This document shows, one piece after another, positions 11,349 through 58,993 of a stretch of DNA of 64,000 nucleotides; positions within the stretch are counted from its first letter, which is position 1; every line of letters starts with the position of its first letter. The notes below the pieces were generated by a model. It was not told where the DNA came from. It made no database searches and worked only from the letters and a program-made list of their open reading frames with translations. Source of the DNA: Octopus vulgaris. Taxonomy: Eukaryota. The stretch spans positions 42,966,001-43,030,000 of the forward strand of contig OX597825.1 in assembly GCA_951406725.2 (NCBI GenBank), in the 5' to 3' direction. Made by a program: the position numbers and the translations under genes.

Positions 11349-14300
11349 TTGTTGTTGGCATCCTTTTTGTCTCGGGAGACAATGGAGTTGCGCATAAAGT
11401 AGTCTAGTCCGGCTTTTACATTTCATATCCTGATACATTTCCTGCTGTGGCTGTGTAGTCCTATCCTGGACAAACAGTCCCTCTGGCAGGTACCGCAAAT
11501 GTAGCGAAGACTGTTCCTGGCTGGTTGTAATGCCATAGTTTCTTGTTGACGTATTTTCTTGTCTTTCCATTTCTCCTCTCTCTCTCTGTCACTCCTTTGT
11601 ATTCCCTCTTTTACGGTACGTCGCCAGCCTCCACGGTTGCCGGCAACTGCCTCTCAACCGCTAATATTGATGTTGCAGGCCTTCATGTCCCTTTTGCAAA
11701 CATCCTTGTAACGTAAGAATGGTCTACCCACAGACCTAGTACCCCTAGCAAGCTCTCCGTAGAGTATGTCCTTGGGGATTCTGCCATCTTTCATACGGCT
11801 AACATGCCCAAGCCATCTCATACGTCTTTGTGTGAGGAGTGCAAACATGCTTGGTATTCCTGCTTGCCTGAGGACATCTTTGTTGGGGATATGATTCTGC
11901 CATTTGATGCGGAGGATTATCCGGAGGCAGCGCAGGTGAAAGATGTTTAGGCGACGCTCTTGGCGTGTGTATAGCGTCCAAGTCTCACTTCCATACAGTA
12001 GAGTGCAAAGTACACATGCCTGGTAGATCTTCATTTTCGTGGTCTTGGTCAGCTTATTGTTGTCCCAAGCCCGTTTGGAGAGTTGGGCCATCGCAGCAGC
12101 TGCCTTGCCAATGCATATATTGAGCTCAGCGTCAAGGGATAGGTTGTAGGTGACGGTAGAGCCAATATAGGTAAATTTCTCCACCTCTTGTAATCTGTGG
12201 TCTCCAATATGTATGTTTGGGATGTCCGATGTAGCCTGACCCATGATGTTGGTCTTCTTAAGGCTGATAGCTAAGCCAAAGTCGTTACATGCTTGCTCAA
12301 AACAGTTAATGAGCCTTTGGAGGGCTTCTTCTGTGTGTGATACCAGAGCGGCATCATCAGCAAATAGCATCTCCTTGATCAGGACGTTTCTGATTTTGGT
12401 CTTGGCACGCAGGGGCGAGAGATTGAACAGTTTCCCGTCACTTCTACTGTGCAGAAACACTCCATCATCTGATGTCTGAAAGGCATGTGAGAGTAAGAGC
12501 GAGAAGAAGATGCCAAACAATGTAGGAGCGAGGACCCCTTGCTTTACCCGTTTTTTATTTGGAAGGCGGCTGATGTTGAACCGTTGTGCTCTATGGTGCC
12601 TTGCATGTCCTCATGGAAAGACTTGATGATCCTCAGCAGCTTTGGTGGACATCCGATTTTTTGGAGCAGGAGGAAGAGGCCTGTTCTGCTTACCGAGTCG
12701 AAGGCCTTTGTTAGATCAATGAAGGCCATATATAGTGGCATTTTCTGCTCTCTGGACTTCTCCTGAAATTGGCGTATGGAGAATATCATATCGATAGTTG
12801 ATATGCTTCTTCTAAAGCCACACTGCGATTCCGGATAGATTCGAGAAGTAAGTAGTTGTAGCCTGGCCAGGATAACGCGGGCAAAGGTCTTTCCAACAGT
12901 GCTTAGTTAACAAAGATATTCCACGGTAATTGTTACAATCACCACGGTCACCTTTGCTTTTGTAAAGCGTAATGATGTTAGCATCCCGCATATCCTGAGG
13001 GACTGTACCCTCTTCCCAGCACTGACACAGAAGCTCATGAAGATGCCGAAGCAGGATGGTGTTTTTGCCGGCTTTGATGATCTCTGAGGGGATGCCGTCT
13101 TTTCCCGGAGCCTTGTTTCTTGCTAGGGAGTCAACAGCCTTGGTGAGCTCTGTTATAGATGGCGGACTGTCAAGTTCGCACATGACTGGCAAGATCTTGA
13201 CACTCTCGACTGCATCCTCAGCCACTGTAGTCTCCCGTGAGTAGAGATCCTGGTAGTGCTCCACCCATCTATCCATTTGCTTGCTTTGATCCCTGATGAG
13301 ATCTCCAGTAGTTGATTTCAGAGGGGCTGACTTGGTTGCGGATGGACCGAGGGCCTTCTTCAAACCGGCATACATCCCACGGGTGTCGCCCCTGTCAGCA
13401 GCTGACTGGATACTCTGACAGATTTCCTGCCAATACCTGTTTGCACAGCGTCTGGCTGTCAGTTGGGTTTTATTTCGTGCCTTTCTGAGTTCTTCGAGTG
13501 ACTTTGTAGAAGAGTCCCTCTTGTATTGCATCAGAGCTGCACGCTTTGCTTCGATAACTGGCTCCAGCTCTGAGAGCCCAGCATTGAACCAATCTGGGTT
13601 TTGCCTTTCTCTCATGCCGAAAGTATCTATTGATGTCGTATACAAAGCTTCCCTGATATAGTTCCACCTACTTTCAGCAGAGGAGGTTGGGCAGCTGCTG
13701 AGGGCAACCTTGATAGAAGCAGCAAAACATTTTCGCAGTGTAGGGTCCGAGGTTCTGGCAGTGTTAATGCGTGGTCGGCCCACTTTCTTGGAGTGATGGA
13801 CTTTTTTAGGCAGAATCCTCACCCTACTTCTAATTAGTGAGTGGTCTGTGTCACAATCCGCGCTGTGGTAACTGCGGGTCAATAGAATAGAATTCAGAAA
13901 GGATCTCCGTGTAATGAAGATATCTTGGATGTCTCCAAGATGTCTTGTGGGATGGCTTGTTGGTAAAGAATGTGTTTGTGATGCACAGGTTATGGTATGT
14001 GCAGAATTCGAGTAGTCTCTGACCATTGTCATTCATGTTGCCAATACCAAAGTGTCCAACACAAATGGGCCATTAATCATGGTCAGATCCCACGCGAGCG
14101 TTAAAATCCCCTAGAAGGTAGATATTTTCAGTTGTTGGTATATTTTCTATGACACAGTTGAGATCTTTGTAGAACTGGTCCTTGGTCTCCTCTGAGCTGT
14201 AGAGAGTGGGAGCATAGATGCTGAGTAGATGTACTGAGCCAGAAGAAGTCGAGAGGCGCAGTGAGAGGATACGCTCAGTGCCTCCTGATGGTGGTTCTAT

Positions 14301-15215
14301 TGAGGAGAGTAATGAGTTTCTCACTGCAAAGCCAACGCCATGTTGACGAGGTTCTTCTGGATCGCTTCCCTGCCAAAAGAAGGTGAAATCCTGCTCTTTG
14401 AGTTTGCCGTTTGAGGGAAGTCTTGTCTCCTGTAGCCCACCAATGTCTATGTTGAGCCTCTTTAGTTCACGGTCAATGATGGCCGTTTTCCTTGTGTCTT
14501 CAATCCTGAGTAGATCATCAGATATTCCAGGGCACATGGTCCTGACATTAAAGCTTGCCAACCGCAGGACTGGTGGTTTCTTGACTTTTAGTTGTTTGTC
14601 TGGTGCAGAGGTTGCAGGCCGCTTTTCAAGTCATACTCTTAGCTCCAAGCACCCAATGAAGCAGGCGGCCTGTGGCGGGTCAGTAGCTTATTAACAGGGG
14701 GCTGCCCAGCTTGAGGTAGGCAGTAGCTAACCAATAGGGCACGGAATTACCTCCCACCGTCAGAGGTAACCCGTAGCGCCCATATTTTACGCCAATCTGA
14801 ATGGACTTATCACTCGTGACTGTTACCTCCCGTGTTGTTTCTGCAGCTTTTTACAGCAGCACTGAAGTGTCCTCTCCAGTTTTGCGCAGGCCTGGGCTAG
14901 AGATAAGAAAGTCCTGGGTAGCCCAATCGTCAGGTTTCCTCTCTCGACCTTGCTGATGTAGTCCAAAGGAGTGCAGTGCATTACGTTTGGCACCAGCTTG
15001 GTGGCAGGAGCTGCCGGAAGAGTGTCGAGTCGAACACTAAACCGCCTTCGGGGCTCCACTCCGGATTTCTTTGAAGGTTGTCTCTTTCCGTAACCCTGGA
15101 TAGGGGCCAATACCGGGTACTGTCAGCGGAGCCAGCTGAGCCCGGAACTCGTGTCAGGCAGGGTCGTCACTCCCTGAAGTAGTGAAGAAGATCGCTACCC
15201 ACTACCTTTTCAAGT
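11349..15215 (-). mobile_element. Near full-length RTE-clade LINE with disrupted APE-RT ORF
   Basis: APE motifs (SFNVRT, GLQETR, YAPT, LLGDFNARVG, DTDHSL) and RT motifs (KAPGKDG, YRGISLL, FIDLTKAFDSV, LFADD, LRWLGHV-like); short (CAA)n 3' tail next to (TA)n; GC-richer 5' UTR. Confidence 0.93.
11654..14561 (-). pseudogene. RTE ORF (APE endonuclease + reverse transcriptase) split by stops and frameshifts
   Basis: Collinear ORF pieces 14073-14561, 13851-14036, 12812-14032, 12544-12789 and 11654-12520. Confidence 0.9.
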
Positions 15216-16270: not shown

Positions 16271-16585
16271 TATGCTTACAGTACCTAGGTATCTTTAGCG
16301 GCAACCCATCTAAGTACTAGCTAGAACCAGTGCATTCAACGTGTGTGGCCGTAAGTGAATATATACACACACACACACACACACATATAAATTATTAAGG
16401 TGGCGATCCCCAATTTACAATCGAAAGTCAACAAGTATAGGCATCACTAAAGTGATGGAAGGTGCTAGTCAGCAGCAGCATTGCTAGAAATAATATTGTG
16501 TGTGTGTGTAACGTAAGGAGGAGGAGAAGCAGGAGGAGAAGGGGAGGAGGAGGAAAAGAAGAAAAAGAAGAAGAAGAAGAGGATT

Positions 16586-16722
16586 GAAAAATACCTTAGG
16601 AATGAGAACCCAGGTTCGAAATTTCCTCAAGGCACCTGATGAAGGGTGGAAGGTATATCAGCCGAAACGTTTTTCACAATAAACAAAATGAGGACAAGTA
16701 TTCGTCAAATGTAAATAATGTA
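16586..16722 (+). mobile_element. Truncated copy of the hammerhead-bearing repeat found at 36.5 and 37.5 kb
   Basis: GAAAAATACCTTAGGAATGAGAACCCAGGTTCGAAATT...GGCAC CTGATGA A GGGTG..CAGCC GAAA CGTT; 3' strand of stem I is degenerate. Confidence 0.8.
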
Positions 16723-16752
16723 GATAATATATATTTATGTATGTATGTATAT

Positions 16753-26118: not shown

Positions 26119-27389
26119 CAGTTGTTACTTATAGCTACAATGTAGCTATATATGAGTGAAGTGGAATATGAGTGAAGTAAAGAATATAGATAGAAAAATA
26201 CGCAAGCTGCTGGGTTGTAATAGGATGCACCACCCAAAGGCAGACGTAGATCGCCTTTACCTTCCCAGAGCCCAAGGAGGTCGAGGCCTGATCCAATTTG
26301 AACTAGCTTACAAAACAACCACAATTGGACTGGCCAAATATCTCGAAATATCGAATGACTGGATGCTAAAGCTCGTGGAAAATCACGAGAGACGAAAGAA
26401 GCTTCATTCTATCATAAAGGAAAGCAAAAAAGTTGCTATTGATCTCGTGCAGGATACCCAAACTGAACAGCCCGAGGGAATTACGGCAACTATTGTTGCA
26501 AAGAAGGTGAAAATGATGGCAATGAAAAAAGCGCACGAGCAATTGGCTGATAGGTGGAAGGAGAAACCTCTGCACGGCAAATATGTGACCCGCAGCAAAC
26601 AAGCTGATGTTGACCAGAAGCAAACCCATCAGTGGCTGCGGAGCTCAGGGCTAAAAGCAGAGAGCGAAGGTTTCATCCTGGCTGCTCAAGATCAAAGCCT
26701 ATTAACCCGGAACTACCAGGCCAATGTGATGAAAAATGGAGCAGACCCAAAATGCCGATTCTGCAACGACATGATTGAAACAGTGGACCACCTAATCTCT
26801 GGATGTAAAGTCTTAGCACCAGTGGAGTATAAATTAAGACATGACAGAGTTGGCCAATATCTCCACTGGCTAATAAGTCGGCATTACAATATCAAAACTG
26901 CCGACAAGTGGTATAATCACCACCCTGAGGCTGTAACTGAAGGAGAAAATGTAACCATTCTGTGGGACTTTCCAGTACATACAGACATGAGCATCGCCTG
27001 TGATCATAATATCTCAGCGAAAGAGTTTGACAAGCTCAGAAAATATAAAGACCTACTCATTGAAATTGAGAAAATGTGGCATCTCAAGGCGGTTACAATA
27101 CCAGTGATCGTAGGAGCACTAGGAATGATCAAGAAGGGAACCGAAAATTATATGAGAATGATCCCTGCAAGAAGTGCAAAAGATTGTCTTAACTGGTACA
27201 TCACACGTATTGAGAAGAGCATTGTCGATGTGAGAACTGTTGCTGCTCATGTATTTTAATTTAACTTTAAAAAAAAAAAAAAAATGAACGAACTACTGAG
27301 TTTGGTTTAATGGCCTACCAATGTATACTATGAGTTTCTTTGCCCTACGAGTCGGGAAGACGCTCGGCAAGAAAAAGAAGAAAAAAAAA

Positions 27390-36100: not shown

Positions 36101-36594
36101 ACACACACATATATTTGTGTGTGTATATATATTTAGAATACGCTTCACAAATTAACGTCAGAAATAGAAAATAATATTTCAAAAATGTAGAAATTCATAA
36201 AGGAAGAAATTGTTTGTTAATTTCCTAAGGAACCAGACGGTATAGGAAGTCCGGTAAACAAATAATTCAAAAGACAAAACGCTTTACAAGAGTGAAAAAG
36301 ATTTAGTGTTATCTACAAATAGTTTTACAACGATCATATCAGAAATCGATAACTAAGGAAATTTCATTGAACCACTCAGTAACTTATCTACAGACCATTT
36401 CACCTGGAAGACGAAGAACATGATCAACGTTTAAAAAATCTTAATATTGAATATTTGAAGAATATAAAGAAAAGAAATCCTGCTAACATTCTCTAAGTGA
36501 TATGAATATATCGAATATATCGAAGCCTTCATTCATGATCATTATTTACATTATTTACATTCGATGGATATTTGTCCTCATCTCGTTTGCTGTT

Positions 36595-36640
36595 AACACA
36601 ACGTTTCGTTTGATATACCCTCCAGCATTCTTCAGGTGTC
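36595..36640 (-). ncRNA. Minimal type I hammerhead (stem II mutated)
   Basis: GACAC-CTGAAGA-A-tgctg..caaac-GAAA-CG-TT-GTGTT. Confidence 0.6.
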
Positions 36641-36711
36641 TTGGGAAAATTTCGAGCCTGGGTTCTAATTCCTAAAGTATTTTTCGATGTTATTATTATT
36701 ATTATTATTCA

Positions 36712-37267
36712 GTAGTTTTATTTTTATAGCGTGCTTTCACTTCACTACCGAGCGCAGCTCTGTGTGCCTTGGGTATGTGCTGTGATTTGTTGTGATGCTC
36801 TGATGGTTATTGTATGGAAAGTGTTCTGCGTAGGATGTGTGCAGTGCCTAGTAGTGCAATTTTCTGTATGTTATATGTGTTTGTAAGTCCTGGTGTTTTT
36901 GTTATGTATTTGTCTGAATATTTTTTTATCATGCCTAATGCACCTACTATGATAGGAATTGTTTCTGTTTTCAGGTTCCACATTCTAGTTACCTCTATTT
37001 CCAGGTCTTTGTATTTTGAGAGTTTCTCCATTTCTTTTAGAGACACGTTGTCATCTGCCGGTATTGATACATCAATTAGAAAGCATTTTTTTTCTTCATG
37101 ATCTCTGACAACTATATCTGGTCTGTTGGCCTTAATTTCTCTATCTGTGTGTATCGGCATATCCCAGAGTATGGTTGCTTTCTCGTTTTCTGTGACCTTT
37201 TCTGGTGTGTGCCTATACCATCTTTTTTCTGTTGTTATTCCATAATGTTGGCATAGCTTCCAATGTA

Positions 37268-37268
<1 letters not shown>
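36712..37268 (-). mobile_element. 5'-truncated R4/Dong-like element (RLE domain) in (TTA)n
   Basis: ILWDMPIHTDREIKANRPDIV...FLIDVSIP...KEMEKLSKYKDL: PD-(D/E)xK-type restriction-like endonuclease; flanked by TTA repeats. Confidence 0.88.
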
Positions 37269-37345
<77 letters not shown>

Positions 37346-37458
37346 GACCTTGCTCAGGTCACTGTTTGGAATCGAACTTGGAATCTTGGGGTTAAGAGCG
37401 CGGGCTGCTAACCCCAAGATTCCGAGTTCGATTCCAAGCAGCGACCTGGGCAATAATG

Positions 37459-37506
<48 letters not shown>

Positions 37507-37553
37507 TCGAAAAATACTTTAGGAATGAAAACCCAGGTTCGAAATTTCCCCAA

Positions 37554-37599
37554 GACATCTGAAGAAGGCTGGAGGTTATATCAGCCGAAACGTTGTGTT
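37554..37599 (+). ncRNA. Minimal type I hammerhead
   Basis: Stem I GACAT/GTGTT; CTGAAGA+A; stem II GGCTG/CAGCC; GAAA; loopless palindromic AACGTT stem III; GUU triplet ending at 37594. Confidence 0.7.
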
Positions 37600-38224
37600 A
37601 ACAACAAACAAGATGAGGACAAATATCCATCGAATGTAAATAATGAAAATAATGTATATAATTCCTCATCTCTTAAATATAGAACTGTACTTCATTTATG
37701 ATATTTAAAAGAGGATGGAAAGTTGATCAGCAATCAAACAAATACTTTTTAATGTCTTTAGTAAATAAACACGATATTAACTATTCCATATCACGGGGAA
37801 ATGGTACTCTGTAAAACTGATAATTCGTTATTTAAAAGTACAAAGTATCCCCTTGTTTCTTTGATTATTTAAACCGATTAAGATTTTTTTTACATTTTGA
37901 CATGTGACTATTATAAAAATATCGTAATAAAACTAAGAATAATACACCATAAACAAGTTTTACTTCAAAGCAATAAAATAACATGTTCTATAGCTCATGG
38001 CTTTTACGTAAGAAATATTCAACATGATTATTCATATATGAAATTATTTCCGGCAGTATTTTCTACTGAAGCATGGAACACAAGTGTTTGTGCAGATCGC
38101 TATCATACTGGGTACGGATTAACCCATATTTCAAAATTATTCATATACATATATGCTTGCATATACATACATGTTTTCACAGACACATATGCAGATAAAG
38201 AGAGAGAGTGGTGCGAGTGGGAGT

Positions 38225-52174: not shown

Positions 52175-52225
<51 letters not shown>

Positions 52226-52308
52226 GGTCCCGGGTTGATTCGGGGTTAACCACAGTAAGTAAGGTACTCAATACATAGCAGAGTAAAATTAATTTATTAT
52301 ATAGAAGG

Positions 52309-52359
52309 AGCTTCTACAGGACTAGTACTGTTTCATTCAAGAGAAATCTTCAGGAAGCT
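52309..52359 (-). ncRNA. Type I hammerhead (left arm)
   Basis: Exact reverse complement of 58896-58946. Confidence 0.78.
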
Positions 52360-52539
52360 ATTTAACAAGAATTGTATTAGCATTTATACATTTAGGCAGG
52401 TTTAAAGGAGTGGTGGTGGGGGACTTTTTGGGGGGTAGGCATAGCGCAAAATATCATACTTGGGGGAGTGGTCAAGGAGTCAGTGGTAAGTTAGATGAAA
52501 GAATAGATAAATAAAAAAATAAAAAAATAAAAAATATAA

Positions 52540-52570
<31 letters not shown>

Positions 52571-53186
52571 ATAAAATAAAAAAATAAAAAAATAAAAAAT
52601 ATAAAAAATATATATAAAAAAATATATATATAAAATATATATATACAAAAATATATATATAAAAAGGGGGGGATAGAGTTATAGGTAAATAAGGAGATTC
52701 TCACTTATACCTATACACACATGTATACGTATCTACACACACATACATACATACACATATATATACACACACATATACATATATACATATATATACATAC
52801 ATATACATACCTACACATACACACATACATACATACAAATATACATATACATATATATATATACAATCCAATACAGGCCCATTCCCTAATTTTAATTTTA
52901 TTATCTTCATTTATTACTTTTGTTATCTTTGATCGCTAGGGCTAAGAATCCTGGCAATGGCTGCAGTCCATTTGTCTGTCTACTAGAAGGCAAGTACTCA
53001 TTCCCGCACGCACACTCATTAGCACGTACATTCACCCATTCGTACACTCATACACATACACGTACGCACGCGTTATATTCATACATACAAACATCTACAT
53101 ACGTTCACGTATATACACATACGTACTCGTACCTACAGATTCGTGTCTACACTTTAGGAGGCTAGACTATACATATACACCAATAA

Positions 53187-53218
<32 letters not shown>

Positions 53219-53835
53219 ACACTATACATACACACACACACATATATACTCCTACATACAGATACATACCTATATATATATATATATATATATATACATG
53301 CATACATATATATATATATATATATATACACATACATACACATACACACATACATATACACACACATACATACACATATATATATACATACACAAACATA
53401 TATACACACATATATATATACATACACACATACACACATACATACGTATACATACATACATACATCCATACATCCATACTTACATGCATTTATACGCATA
53501 CACACACCCATCTATATATATGCATATATATATACATATATATATATATACACACTCACACATACATATACAAATCCACGCACACACATACATACATACA
53601 CGTATACGCATACACGCACATACACATATACATGCGTACCCATACACGTGCACACACGCACGCGCATCCATATATATACACACACACACATATATATACA
53701 CGTGTGCAAGCATACATACATACTCATACGCGCACACATACTTACAAATACATATATGCACACACTTACACACATATATATACATACACATATACATGCA
53801 TACATACATATATGCATACATACACACACGCACTC

Positions 53836-53868
<33 letters not shown>

Positions 53869-53941
53869 TACATATATATACATATATATATACATACATA
53901 GATACACATACGCATACATACACATACACATACATACACAC

Positions 53942-53986
<45 letters not shown>

Positions 53987-54195
53987 TACATATATACACA
54001 CATACATACATATACATACACACACATACATATATACATATACACTGATACACATACCCATACTTACACATGCATATACTTATATCACTACATACTCACA
54101 TATATAAACATATATACATATACACACATACATATATACATGTACATACACATACGTATGCATATATATACATATACATATATATACACATATAC

Positions 54196-54234
<39 letters not shown>

Positions 54235-54486
54235 TACACACATATACATGTATACATACGCAAAAATGATACACATATATACACATACACACACACAGAC
54301 AGATGCATATACATACATATATATATATAAACTACATATCTATATAAATACATACATAATACACATATACACACACATATATATACATTCATGCATATAC
54401 ATATACAAGTATACACATACATACATACACACATACATACATATACACACACACATATATACACATACATACATACATACACACAT

Positions 54487-54529
<43 letters not shown>

Positions 54530-54908
54530 CACGTACACATATACATATGTATATATATATCAACAAGGGAGGGTAAAGTTAATTAGTTATTAATCAATTT
54601 CATCAAGTGTTCAGTATGTAAAGGGACCATTATTATTTTGAGTAAACAATGTTAGAGGGAAAAAATTCTCTAAGTAGTGGAAGAGGCTAAAAAACTTTAT
54701 TGGCTGCTATTTCTAGAAAGTTTAGTATGTGGCAAAGTAATTTATTTTATTTTCTAATCCCTAATTATATAATATTTTATACATACATACACATACATAA
54801 GCACATACATTTACACATACATATGCATATACATATATACACATATACATACAAACACATATACACATATACACACACACACACATACAAGCACATACAT
54901 ATATATAT

Positions 54909-54951
<43 letters not shown>

Positions 54952-55212
54952 AATATATATACATATATATTTTTACATGCATACATACACACACACACAC
55001 ATAATACATGCGTATATTCCTACTGTACCCATGCATTTCTATACAAATATACATACATACATACGATACACATATACAAGCGTGCACATATAATATGTGA
55101 AAGGTCTTAGGAGAAAAGGTAATCGGGGGTGCTAGGGGAACAGTGGGGTTGGGGGGGGGGGGTAGGGGGGGTTGTGTGGGGGGGGGGGGTTGTAGGGGGC
55201 GGTTGGTTGTCA

Positions 55213-55604
55213 TCAATCAGGTTGCCGGGTAGGTCTATAGTTCTTGTAGTTCGCATACTTCTTATGCATACAATTTGGGGAGTGTTCTGAAAATTTGTTA
55301 AGGAGAGGGCCTTTGGCGAACAAGATCTCTAGGCTCTCTGACATGCATAGGTCACAGCAGGTATGTCCTCCTGTGTACGAGCGCGCCTTCTGTAGTAGTT
55401 TCCACTTGGTCTTGAAGGGGATTGAGTTCCTTTTAAGGTACCAGATGTGGGCGGCGAGGGTAGTTTGGTTGGATTTATCCTGTCGCCGGAACGAGTGTGT
55501 ATGTGCATACCAGCGGGTCTTAAAGCTGTTTGACGTCATTCCAATGTAGGATTTACTTTTATCGTCAAGGCCTGATCTTACCTCGCATTTATATACTAGG
55601 TCCC
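55213..55604 (-). pseudogene. PLE GIY-YIG endonuclease C-terminal fragment (left arm)
   Basis: Mirror of 55619-56010 with one amino-acid difference (CMSES vs CISES). Confidence 0.85.
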
Positions 55605-55605
55605 A

Positions 55606-56010
55606 AACTGCCTACAGAGGGACCTAGTATATAAATGCGAGGTAAGATCAGGCCTTGACGATAAAAGTAAATCCTACATTGGAATGACGTCAAACAGCTT
55701 TAAGACCCGCTGGTATGCACATACACACTCGTTCCGGCGACAGGATAAATCCAACCAAACTACCCTCGCCGCCCACATCTGGTACCTTAAAAGGAACTCA
55801 ATCCCCTTCAAGACCAAGTGGAAACTACTACAGAAGGCGCGCTCGTACACAGGAGGACATACCTGCTGTGACCTATGCATATCAGAGAGCCTAGAGATCT
55901 TGTTCGCCAAAGGCCCTCTCCTTAACAAATTTTCAGAACACTCCCCAAATTGTATGCATAAGAAGTATGCGAACTACAAGAACTATAGACCTACCCGGCA
56001 ACCTGATTGA
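55606..56010 (+). pseudogene. PLE GIY-YIG endonuclease domain, 5'-truncated, no RT
   Basis: NCLQRDLVYKCEV...KSYIGMTSNSFKTRWYAH..SFR...TTLAAHIW.LK...W...CDLCISE...LLN...CMH: VY/YIG motif, catalytic R and E, PLE-type Cys/His residues. Confidence 0.88.
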
Positions 56011-56284
56011 TGACAACCAACCCCCCCTACAACTCCCCCCCAACCCCCCCCCCTACAACCCCCCCCCCTACAAACCCCCCCCCCAACCCCACTTGTCCCC
56101 TAGCACCCCCGATTACCTTTTCTCCTAAGACCTTTCACATATTATATGTGCACGCTTGTATATGTGTATCGTATGTATGTATGTATATTTGTATAGAAAT
56201 GCATGGGTACAGTAGGAATATACGCATGTATTATGTGTGTGTGTGTGTATGTATGCATGTAAAAAAATATATATGTATATATAT

Positions 56285-56329
<45 letters not shown>

Positions 56330-56709
56330 ATATATATATGTATGTGCTTGTATGTGTGTGTGTGTGTATATGTGTATATGTGTTTGTATGTATATGTGTA
56401 TATATGTATATGCATATGTATGTGTAAATGTATGTGCTTATGTATGTGTATGTATGTATAAAATATTATATAATTAGGGATTAGGAAAATAAAATAAATT
56501 ACTTTGCCACATACTAAACTTTCTAGAAATAGCAGCCAATAAAGTTTTTTAGCCTCTTCCACTACTTAGAGAATTTTTTCCCTCTAACATTGTTTACTCA
56601 AAATAATAATGGTCCCTTTACATACTGAACACTTGATGAAATTGATTAATAACTAATTAACTTTACCCTCCCTTGTTGATATATATATACATATGTATAT
56701 GTGTACGTG

Positions 56710-56758
<49 letters not shown>

Positions 56759-57014
56759 ATGTGTGTATGTATGTATGTATTTGTATATATGTGTGTGTGT
56801 ATATGTATGTGTGCGCGTGTGTGTGTATGTATGTGTATACTTGTATATGTATATGCATGAATGTATATATATGTGTGTGTATATGTGTATTATGTATGTA
56901 TTTATATAGATATGTAGTTTATATATATATATGTATGTATATGCATCTGTCTGTGTGTGTGTATGTGTATATATGTGTATCATTTTTGCGTATGTATACA
57001 TGTATATGTGTGTA

Positions 57015-57053
<39 letters not shown>

Positions 57054-57385
57054 GTATATGTGTATATATATGTATATGTATATATATGCATACGTATGTG
57101 TATGTACATGTATATATGTATGTGTGTATATGTATATATGTTTATATATGTGAGTATGTAGTGATATAAGTATATGCATGTGTAAGTATGGGTATGTGTA
57201 TCAGTGTATATGTATATATGTATGTGTGTGTGTATGTATATGTATGTATGTGTGTATATATGTATGTGTATATGTGTTATATATATATATATATATATAT
57301 ATGTGTATATATGTGTGTATGTATGTGTATGTGTATGTATGCGTATGTGTATCTATGTATGTATATATATATGTATATATATGTA

Positions 57386-57418
<33 letters not shown>

Positions 57419-57917
57419 GAGTGCGTGTGTGTATGTATGCATATATGTATGTATGCATGTATATGTGTATGTATATATATGTGTGTAAGTGTGTGCATAT
57501 ATGTATTTGTAAGTATGTGTGCGCGTATGAGTATGTATGTATGCTTGCACACGTGTATATATATGTGTGTGTGTGTATATATATGGATGCGCGTGCGTGT
57601 GTGCACGTGTATGGGTACGCATGTATATGTGTATGTGCGTGTATGCGTATACGTGTATGTATGTATGTGTGTGCGTGGATTTGTATATGTATGTGTGAGT
57701 GTGTATATATATATATATGTATATATATATGCATATATATAGATGGGTGTGTGTATGCGTATAAATGCATGTAAGTATGGATGTATGGATGTATGTATGT
57801 ATGTATACGTATGTATGTGTGTATGTGTGTATGTATATATATATGTGTGTATATATGTTTGTGTATGTATATATATGTGTATGTATGTGTGTGTATATGT
57901 ATGTGTGTATGTGTATG

Positions 57918-57948
<31 letters not shown>

Positions 57949-58023
57949 GTATGCATGTATATATATATATATATATATATAGGTATGTATCTGTATGTAG
58001 GAGTATATATGTGTGTGTGTGTA

Positions 58024-58066
<43 letters not shown>

Positions 58067-58895
58067 TTATTGGTGTATATGTATAGTCTAGCCTCCTAAA
58101 GTGTAGACACGAATCTGTAGGTACGAGTACGTATGTGTATATACGTGAACGTATGTAGATGTTTGTATGTATGAATATAACGCGTGCGTACGTGTATGTG
58201 TATGAGTGTACGAATGGGTGAATGTACGTGCTAATGAGTGTGCGTGCGGGAATGAGTACTTGCCTTCTAGTAGACAGACAAATGGACTGCAGCCATTGCC
58301 AGGATTCTTAGCCCTAGCGATCAAAGATAACAAAAGTAATAAATGAAGATAATAAAATTAAAATTAGGGAATGGGCCTGTATTGGATTGTATATATATAT
58401 ATGTATATGTATATTTGTATGTATGTATGTGTGTATGTGTAGGTATGTATATGTATGTATATATATATGTATATATGTATATGTGTGTGTATATATATGT
58501 GTATGTATGTATGTGTGTGTAGATACGTATACATGTGTGTATAGGTATAAGTGAGAATCTCCTTATTTACCTATAACTCTATCCCCCTTTTTTTATATAT
58601 ATATTTTTGTATATATATATTTTATATATATATTTTTTATATATATTTTTTATATTTTTTATTTTTTTATTTTTTTATTTTATTTTATTTTTTTATTTTT
58701 TTATTTTTTATTTTTTATATTTTTTTATTTTTTTATTTTTTTATTTATCTATTCTTTCATCTAACTTACCACTGACTCCTTGACCACTCCCCCAAGTATG
58801 ATATTTTGCGCTATGCCTACCCCCCAAAAAGTCCCCCACCACCACTCCTTTAAACCTGCCTAAATGTATAAATGCTAATACAATTCTTGTTAAAT

Positions 58896-58946
58896 AGCTT
58901 CCTGAAGATTTCTCTTGAATGAAACAGTACTAGTCCTGTAGAAGCT
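58896..58946 (+). ncRNA. Type I hammerhead (right arm)
   Basis: AGCTTC-CTGAAGA-TTTC TCTT GAAT-GAAA-CAG TACTAGTC CTG-TA-GAAGCT: perfect 6-bp stem I, 4-bp stem III, U-U at 10.1/11.1; predicted cleavage after A58940. Confidence 0.78.
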
Positions 58947-58957
58947 CCTTCTATATA

Positions 58958-58993
<36 letters not shown>

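Follow-up and report, generated by a model that had tools for sequence, protein, structure and literature searches.

The window analyzed here was a 64,000-nucleotide stretch of the Octopus vulgaris genome (GenBank assembly GCA_951406725.2, contig OX597825.1, contig position 42966001-43030000, forward strand), and genome searches covered 2.8 Gb in 227 contigs. At 36540-37689 the window contains a fold-back made of two head-to-head end pieces of a Penelope-like element (PLE), inverted relative to each other and flanked by a target-site duplication. The features, in window coordinates, were as follows.

36527-36539, no strand: left target-site duplication of 13 bp, differing from the right copy at one position
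36540-36691, minus strand: left arm, hammerhead/ORF-start module of the PLE pseudo-LTR with the short 3' end and no tail
36595-36640, minus strand: left minimal hammerhead, core intact and stem II broken, likely inactive
36690-36709, minus strand: (TAA)n, outer portion of the left-arm microsatellite
36710-37270, minus strand: 5'-truncated Dong/R4-like non-LTR retrotransposon within the (TAA)n, outside the PLE proper
37270-37345, minus strand: (TAA)n, inner portion of the left-arm microsatellite
37351-37394, minus strand: left head, 3' part only (head positions ~37-76, including the B box)
37390-37449, plus strand: right head (head positions 17-76), with the last 2 nt of the A box and the B box at 37426-37435
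37390-37394: 5-nt microhomology joining the right head to the left head
37453-37502, plus strand: internal (TAA)n microsatellite of the right arm
37503-37689, plus strand: right-arm module (187 bp), the PLE ORF start
37554-37599, plus strand: type I minimal hammerhead with stem I, core, bulged A, 5-bp stem II and palindromic 2-bp stem III
Between 37594 and 37595, plus strand: predicted hammerhead cut of the right arm
37655-37689, plus strand: optional ~35-bp PLE tail, right arm only
37690-37702, no strand: right target-site duplication
16583-16734, plus strand: separate older copy, module only, with no head, the short end and a decayed hammerhead

A preliminary description of this DNA had placed a head, a (TAA)n run and a hammerhead in the right arm, and all three are present at 37390-37449, 37453-37502 and 37554-37599. 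An ATG at 37525 opens a frame that runs through the hammerhead and a series of 9-nt repeats to the element end. The internal (TAA)n is absent in locus L002 and long in other copies. The left arm had been called a mirror of the right; its inverted module (36540-36691) is indeed 92% identical to the right module, but its (TAA)n is interrupted by a 561-bp LINE piece, and the hammerhead reported at 36595-36640 keeps its core while 3 of its 5 stem II pairs are broken. The third copy reported near 16.6 kb contains the module, at 85% identity, but no head, and its stem I is lost. As for the reported half A box followed by a B box, the B box is there, but fusion of the two heads at the 5-nt microhomology has left just the final 2 of the 11 A-box bases; the same join, at the same head positions, recurs in loci L019 and L082. 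The 13-bp target duplication and the one-sided 35-bp tail were absent from that account. The window locus can be summed up as a decayed fold-back of a PLE, with a LINE nested in it.

The nested piece (561 bp, 36710-37270, minus strand) is the 3' end of a restriction-like-endonuclease LINE with TAA on both sides. The endonuclease end of its ORF lies at 36810-37265 and is followed by the 3' UTR; relatives of the insert carry reverse transcriptase (RT) domains, comparison with R2 endonuclease structures gave a weak match (E 0.013), and a Pfam scan of the insert returned no informative match. In the portion of PMC7998251 available, (TAA)n is given as the target of Dong, and the insert shares with the Dong/R4 elements described there a restriction-like endonuclease C-terminus, 5' truncation and (TAA)n flanks; the clade is given as Dong/R4-like from this likeness rather than from a tree. 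A TAA-targeting Dong-like LINE likely entered the left arm after the fold-back had formed, and the internal TAA of the family acts as a landing site for other elements. Movement of the whole composite, LINE piece included, as one unit was rejected because L003 carries a longer, independent LINE insertion.

Separately, a second, different Dong-like LINE piece with (TAA)n on both sides was observed at 26156-27350 (plus strand) of the window. Dong-like ends also sit in the (TAA)n of the PLE family in L003, L009 and L027, and one recurring unnamed element occupies this (TAA)n upstream of the module in L005, L007, L011, L019 and L020.

According to the available part of PMC4209133, minimal ribozymes of PLEs carry an extra base ahead of stem II, pair G10.1 with C11.1 and have a palindromic stem III. 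The family majority state has a canonical hammerhead core, stem I, a perfect 5-bp stem II, the extra base, the G10.1-C11.1 pair and the palindromic stem III. Rfam made no hammerhead call at the window locus, and the hammerhead was read from motif geometry. It is fully intact in 16 of 50 copies. Changes numbered 14/513 in the hammerhead core versus 275/5,469 elsewhere; the main core variant lies at the free position 7 (U/A, with C at 46% in run X17), and no compensatory stem pairs were seen within the family. The isolated motif from L002 was predicted to fold into stems I and II, and with flanks included the prediction preferred an alternative hairpin over the hammerhead. Self-cleavage would be predicted only as a dimer or with protein help. 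No read pile-up was found at the predicted cut in one fragmented cDNA library, a type of library that is uninformative on cleavage; the same result is reported for PAc of Anolis in the accessible part of PMC11167929.

That the unit belongs to a dispersed family, as previously proposed, was borne out by 3,605 first-look candidates in the genome. A systematic sample of sixty 10-kb stretches at round coordinates (600 kb) contained 9 insertion loci, which extrapolates to about 42,000 loci genome-wide (Poisson range roughly 19,000-80,000). Contig runs from five organisms contain over half of the sampled words of the family, and a metagenome scan for relatives, which reaches close relatives only, gave 127 pattern matches, none of them confirmed. 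The expected co-occurrence of head and hammerhead was found as well: a downstream same-strand module was present in 24 of 30 head-selected loci (23/29 without the source of the query), and the head was present in 22 of 29 tail-selected loci (source left out), several of the others having another element in the TAA. Chance nesting, in which a TAA-tailed tRNA SINE inserted beside an unrelated hammerhead module, could draw on the use of (TAA)n as a target by other elements and on the 6/30 head-selected loci that have no same-strand module within 1.5 kb. Against it, head and module are joined without TAA in L002, lie within one shared target duplication and follow the PLE ORF as one unit; it is refuted by the ORF-linked copies and was left with a negligible probability.

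These ORF-linked copies bear on what the unit is. The partner PLE was found from head-selected loci, and the order in ORF-bearing copies is ORF end, short spacer, head, (TAA)n and hammerhead module. An ORF with Penelope-type motifs ends upstream of the head in L135 and L150. A query with the ORF end gave 2,637 first-look candidates in the genome, and the ORF end was followed by the head and/or the module in 25 of 30 ORF-selected loci (24/29 without the source of the query). The hammerhead module in turn forms the first ~55 codons of the PLE ORF: in L181, L183 and L184 the module tail passes into the ORF start without a break or a change of frame, and all 40 scored matches to a junction query (39 besides the source) span the module-ORF junction. 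L157, L171 and L178 retain roughly 2 kb of the ORF in decayed form, RT motifs included, and in L178 the RT region matches ORFs of other PLE families with PF01541 hits at 29% identity (E 7e-28). Motifs in the translations also suggest a GIY-YIG endonuclease for this PLE family, and by resemblance the clade is presumably Penelope/Poseidon. Neither an intact ORF nor a complete head-ORF-head copy was found among the loci examined. A separate search for the partner via PF01541 was unproductive, as the 30 loci examined belonged to different PLE families, in which nothing matched the module.

In the pseudo-LTR test the same sequence was recovered on both sides of the ORF, following its end and preceding its start. 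The unit is almost certainly the pseudo-LTR plus ORF start of a protein-coding PLE family of the same genome. There is strong support for the previously suggested link to Penelope machinery, and of a more direct kind than had been proposed: the unit follows the PLE ORF end and itself forms the ORF start; in the comparison with pseudo-LTRs of autonomous PLEs that had been called for, the 3' part matches ORF-linked copies in the same genome.

The preliminary description had also proposed a separate non-autonomous SINE, and this is not supported, the same sequence being part of a coding element. On that model an independent non-autonomous ribozyme-SINE, arisen from the pseudo-LTR, would have its own master loci, borrow the PLE protein and account for most short copies. 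Short copies do far outnumber ORF-linked ones (ORF sequence in 1 of 9 random loci), and long solo copies retain both boxes and both priming sites. Solo and ORF-linked copies also differ at module position 130 (A in 31/33 versus 4/16, p=1.5e-6) and at head position 64; the two sets were picked with different queries, so this comparison is biased. When head position 64 was counted genome-wide, the variant was shared, with A in 22/50 ORF-side heads versus 46/83 hairpin heads (p=0.22; counts made by eye from pattern matches, one T row dropped from each set). Divergence from the majority was alike in the solo and ORF-linked sets (0.058 versus 0.060), and no terminator and no SINE-type tail (A-rich or simple-repeat) was found at the 3' end. 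An independent SINE is considered improbable on these grounds. A shared pool of solo and ORF-linked copies is favoured, and secondary amplification of solos may have occurred.

Insertion patterns were compared across loci. Before pair, target-duplication, breakpoint and solo-versus-ORF counts were made, the duplicates L001, L025, L121 and L151 were dropped, as was L182. The 3' ends form a short class and a long class with the ~35-bp tail. Among 43 head-to-head pairs examined, 8 had a cut arm and 35 had both ends resolved, and 33 of these 35 combined one long with one short end; unpaired arms comprised 31 long, 25 short and 4 cut. A target duplication score of at least 7 was obtained in 23/34 pairs versus 3% of 1,122 mismatched pairs, the duplications being mostly 10-13 bp; of the 11 misses, L017 and L181 at least resulted from mispairing of inner ends. 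Each fold-back that shares a target duplication is therefore one insertion. The arms of a pair share more minority variants than shuffled pairs (43 versus 18.7 +/- 3.8; 0/2,000 shuffles) and differ at core position 7 in 4/26 pairs; most, not all, pairs therefore come from one template or source. The more complete arm was the short-end arm in 23/32 pairs, a trend only, noisy and including some false centre calls. Given this loose arm polarity and the position-7 differences, a single snap-back route does not explain all cases. Tandem modules were present in 1 of 30 tail-selected loci (L017) and not at the window locus. The exception, at L017:1305-2615, has six tandem modules behind one head, an inverted short arm and a 10-bp target duplication, and resembles a retrozyme array.

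The head was read as tRNA-like from motif geometry. A and B boxes stand at tRNA spacing in the family majority state and in L183, and intact A boxes occur in other copies; conserved bases of L183 fall at tRNA positions 8, 14, 32-33, 37, 53-58 and 61. The A+B pattern occurred 0 times in ten shuffles of the 600-kb sample and 3 times in the real sample, there from other repeats. Rfam covariance models gave no tRNA match to the head at E<=10, and ARAGORN found no tRNA within the window. In the sets assembled without head selection (tail-selected and random), the 5' breakpoint fell within -12..+5 of the head start in 20/29 head-bearing arms, 8/29 began inside the head and 1/29 reached the ORF. Many copies start at -4..+4 without an inverted remnant. 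L183 and L185 start at the head and continue into the ORF; therefore head-started templates that included coding sequence existed.

Against an expectation of 64, the sense strand of 34 kb of copies contained 9 TTTT runs. There are 0 in the majority state of 2,091 nt, and in the commonest other PLE family TTTT is 1.8-fold enriched. As the deficit comes from one lineage (P 0.02 by base shuffle, 0.06 by synonymous shuffle) and 4 of 25 control ORFs are also free of TTTT, it is suggestive only.

On this evidence it appears rather probable that the family is a PLE whose pseudo-LTR carries a Pol III-started head and which, through internal priming, gives rise to SINE-like solo and fold-back copies; the Pol III role of the head, taken by itself, is held with similarly moderate confidence. 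Briefly, Pol III transcription would start at the head. The PLE protein would cut both strands of AT-rich DNA with a stagger and, within the ORF start, would prime reverse transcription from two internal sites separated by ~35 nt. Priming within the first copy of the head-started RNA would yield a ~250-290-nt cDNA running out at the head, which could insert as a solo SINE-like copy. A fold-back would arise if the end of the cDNA snapped back at a short inverted repeat, or if it was joined to another cDNA; at the window locus the join at an internal 5-nt microhomology would have cost the right head most of its A box. Priming at two internal positions and tails confined to one side have both been reported for PLEs in the accessible portions of PMC11167929 and PMC8557442.

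The main rival to a Pol III-started head follows from the spacer-head junction, which is itself predicted to fold as a hairpin (-7.3 kcal/mol) and could stop or redirect the enzyme without any promoter. The head would then be a passenger relic within the pseudo-LTR, Pol II transcripts begun in upstream copies or in host genes would cover the element, and RT would stall or snap back at the hairpin. Exact genome counts gave 1,513 head starts, 227 ORF-side junctions and 224 perfect hairpin junctions, with 0 for reversed controls, so that perfect hairpin junctions are as common as ORF-side ones, in keeping with this view; the counts as a whole were also taken as evidence for the Pol III-started reading. 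The RNA reads described below resemble read-through on both strands, and PLE pseudo-LTRs are described, in the part of PMC6765202 at hand, as holding promoters that drive tandem downstream copies. The copies that begin at -4..+4 without an inverted remnant, the retention of both boxes at tRNA spacing in the majority state and the near absence of TTTT from the sense strand argue against a passenger head, which is regarded as unlikely, if less so than an independent SINE. Pol III initiation at the head is retained as the preferred reading.

In raw RNA run X24, from another organism, 7,568 of 12.9 million reads were assigned to the family, equally on both strands, and 91% of assigned reads run on into unlike sequence. 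No pile-up of read starts or ends, the predicted cut included, was listed in this one effectively unstranded run; loose ends did pile up at the short 3' end, in part artefactually, owing to the repeat length of L002, which served as reference. An end-to-head joint of the kind expected from a circular RNA was not among the 15 joints listed, 153 further joints lying beyond the list, and contig runs are unable to show transcript starts or levels. The family is present in transcripts, mostly as read-through, and the RNA run says nothing on Pol III or cleavage.

One observation was made in passing. Along L002:1410-1710, A>G and T>C changes are numerous in run X24, at 12-25% (e.g. 1513, 1542, 1543, 1581), and near zero in the three contig runs, a pattern expected of A-to-I editing of double-stranded fold-backs. 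It is no more than a lead, since different organisms supplied the runs and rare variants are lost from contigs.

Comparisons with published systems refer to the accessible portions of the sources cited, among them PMC8969392, PMC8967140, PMC6962438 and PMC13282606. The octopus family is like PAc of Anolis in having a single ORF with RT and a putative C-terminal endonuclease-like domain (PMC11167929, PMC8557442), a pseudo-LTR hammerhead overlapping the ORF start and two probable priming sites within the ORF (PMC11167929). With Penelope/Poseidon PLEs it shares two 3' end positions that define an optional tail, which in PLEs measures 30-40 bp and often occurs at one end only, and inverted 5' copies, here in 43 head-to-head pairs (PMC8557442). 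Unlike the PLEs known from these sources, its pseudo-LTR contains an A/B-box head and (TAA)n, copies pile up at the head and TTTT is nearly absent. The PLE literature searched, which included few subscription papers and no repeat databases, held no report of a tRNA-like head; the unit may already carry a name in Repbase, Dfam, SINEBase or the 1994 octopus SINE paper. Octopus repeat surveys, in the parts available, list Penelope, Dong-R4 and many unclassified SINEs and do not mention hammerheads.

A tRNA-derived SINE-like repeat with a hammerhead has already been described in schistosomes (Sm-alpha/Sj-alpha; PMC6765202, PMC2770079, available portions). Like the octopus unit it is tRNA-like, hammerhead-bearing and present in >10,000 copies, and it is apparently transcribed by Pol III. 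Sm-alpha/Sj-alpha differ in being tandem and non-coding, in having had cleavage shown in vitro and in the lack, in those portions, of a described link to a PLE ORF, whereas the octopus unit belongs to a coding PLE, its hammerhead is of the minimal type and its insertions are mostly solo or head-to-head. Animal non-LTR retrozymes (bioRxiv 10.64898/2026.07.22.740005, seen in part) are likewise short hammerhead repeats traced to PLE pseudo-LTRs, but are defined by tandem arrays with circular RNAs; arrays were found in octopus at only the one tail-selected locus noted above. The accessible text of that preprint makes no mention of tRNA, Pol III, octopus or molluscs. Cassandra, Helenus and Ajax also carry a small-RNA-like promoter within a retroelement terminal repeat, but as far as the available part of PMC10886601 goes these are non-autonomous LTR elements rather than a protein-coding PLE.

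PLE transcription and the formation of inverted, tailed insertions are named as open questions of the field in the accessible portion of PMC8557442. In this family the 5' boundary and both 3' ends are fixed, insertions carry target duplications and copies are very numerous, so two-strand priming and snap-back models become countable within a single genome. Should the head be a working Pol III promoter, it would be an unusual drive for a coding retrotransposon, and it would show a SINE-like family arising from a pseudo-LTR without a LINE partner. Copies of this kind are likely mislabelled as SINEs in automated repeat libraries. In a more speculative extension, which we consider doubtful, a PLE captured a tRNA-derived promoter and is transcribed by Pol III end to end, its ~2.7-kb sense strand having been purged of TTTT; the short by-products would be SINEs born from a pseudo-LTR, a route to Sm-alpha-like ribozyme SINEs, and the fold-backs, in tens of thousands, would feed double-stranded RNA to A-to-I editing.

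Other elements were observed in the window and the genome. A head-to-head inverted repeat of 6.7 kb, bounded by (TA)n runs, occupies 52220-58965 of the window. Its arms are 88-98% complementary around a 14-nt centre; extra sequence is present at the left end only, and the structure resembles either a microsatellite-targeting PLE fold-back or an assembly fold-back. Broken LINE ORFs with endonuclease and RT parts lie at 11657-14630 (minus strand) and are presumably RTE-like, by resemblance. In the genome, L037, L042 and related loci represent a young PLE family that has an intact 781-aa frame in many copies and ends at (TA)n; its ORF is followed by CCAAT/CRE-like repeats, and it carries a hammerhead-like motif with a U3-A8 core.
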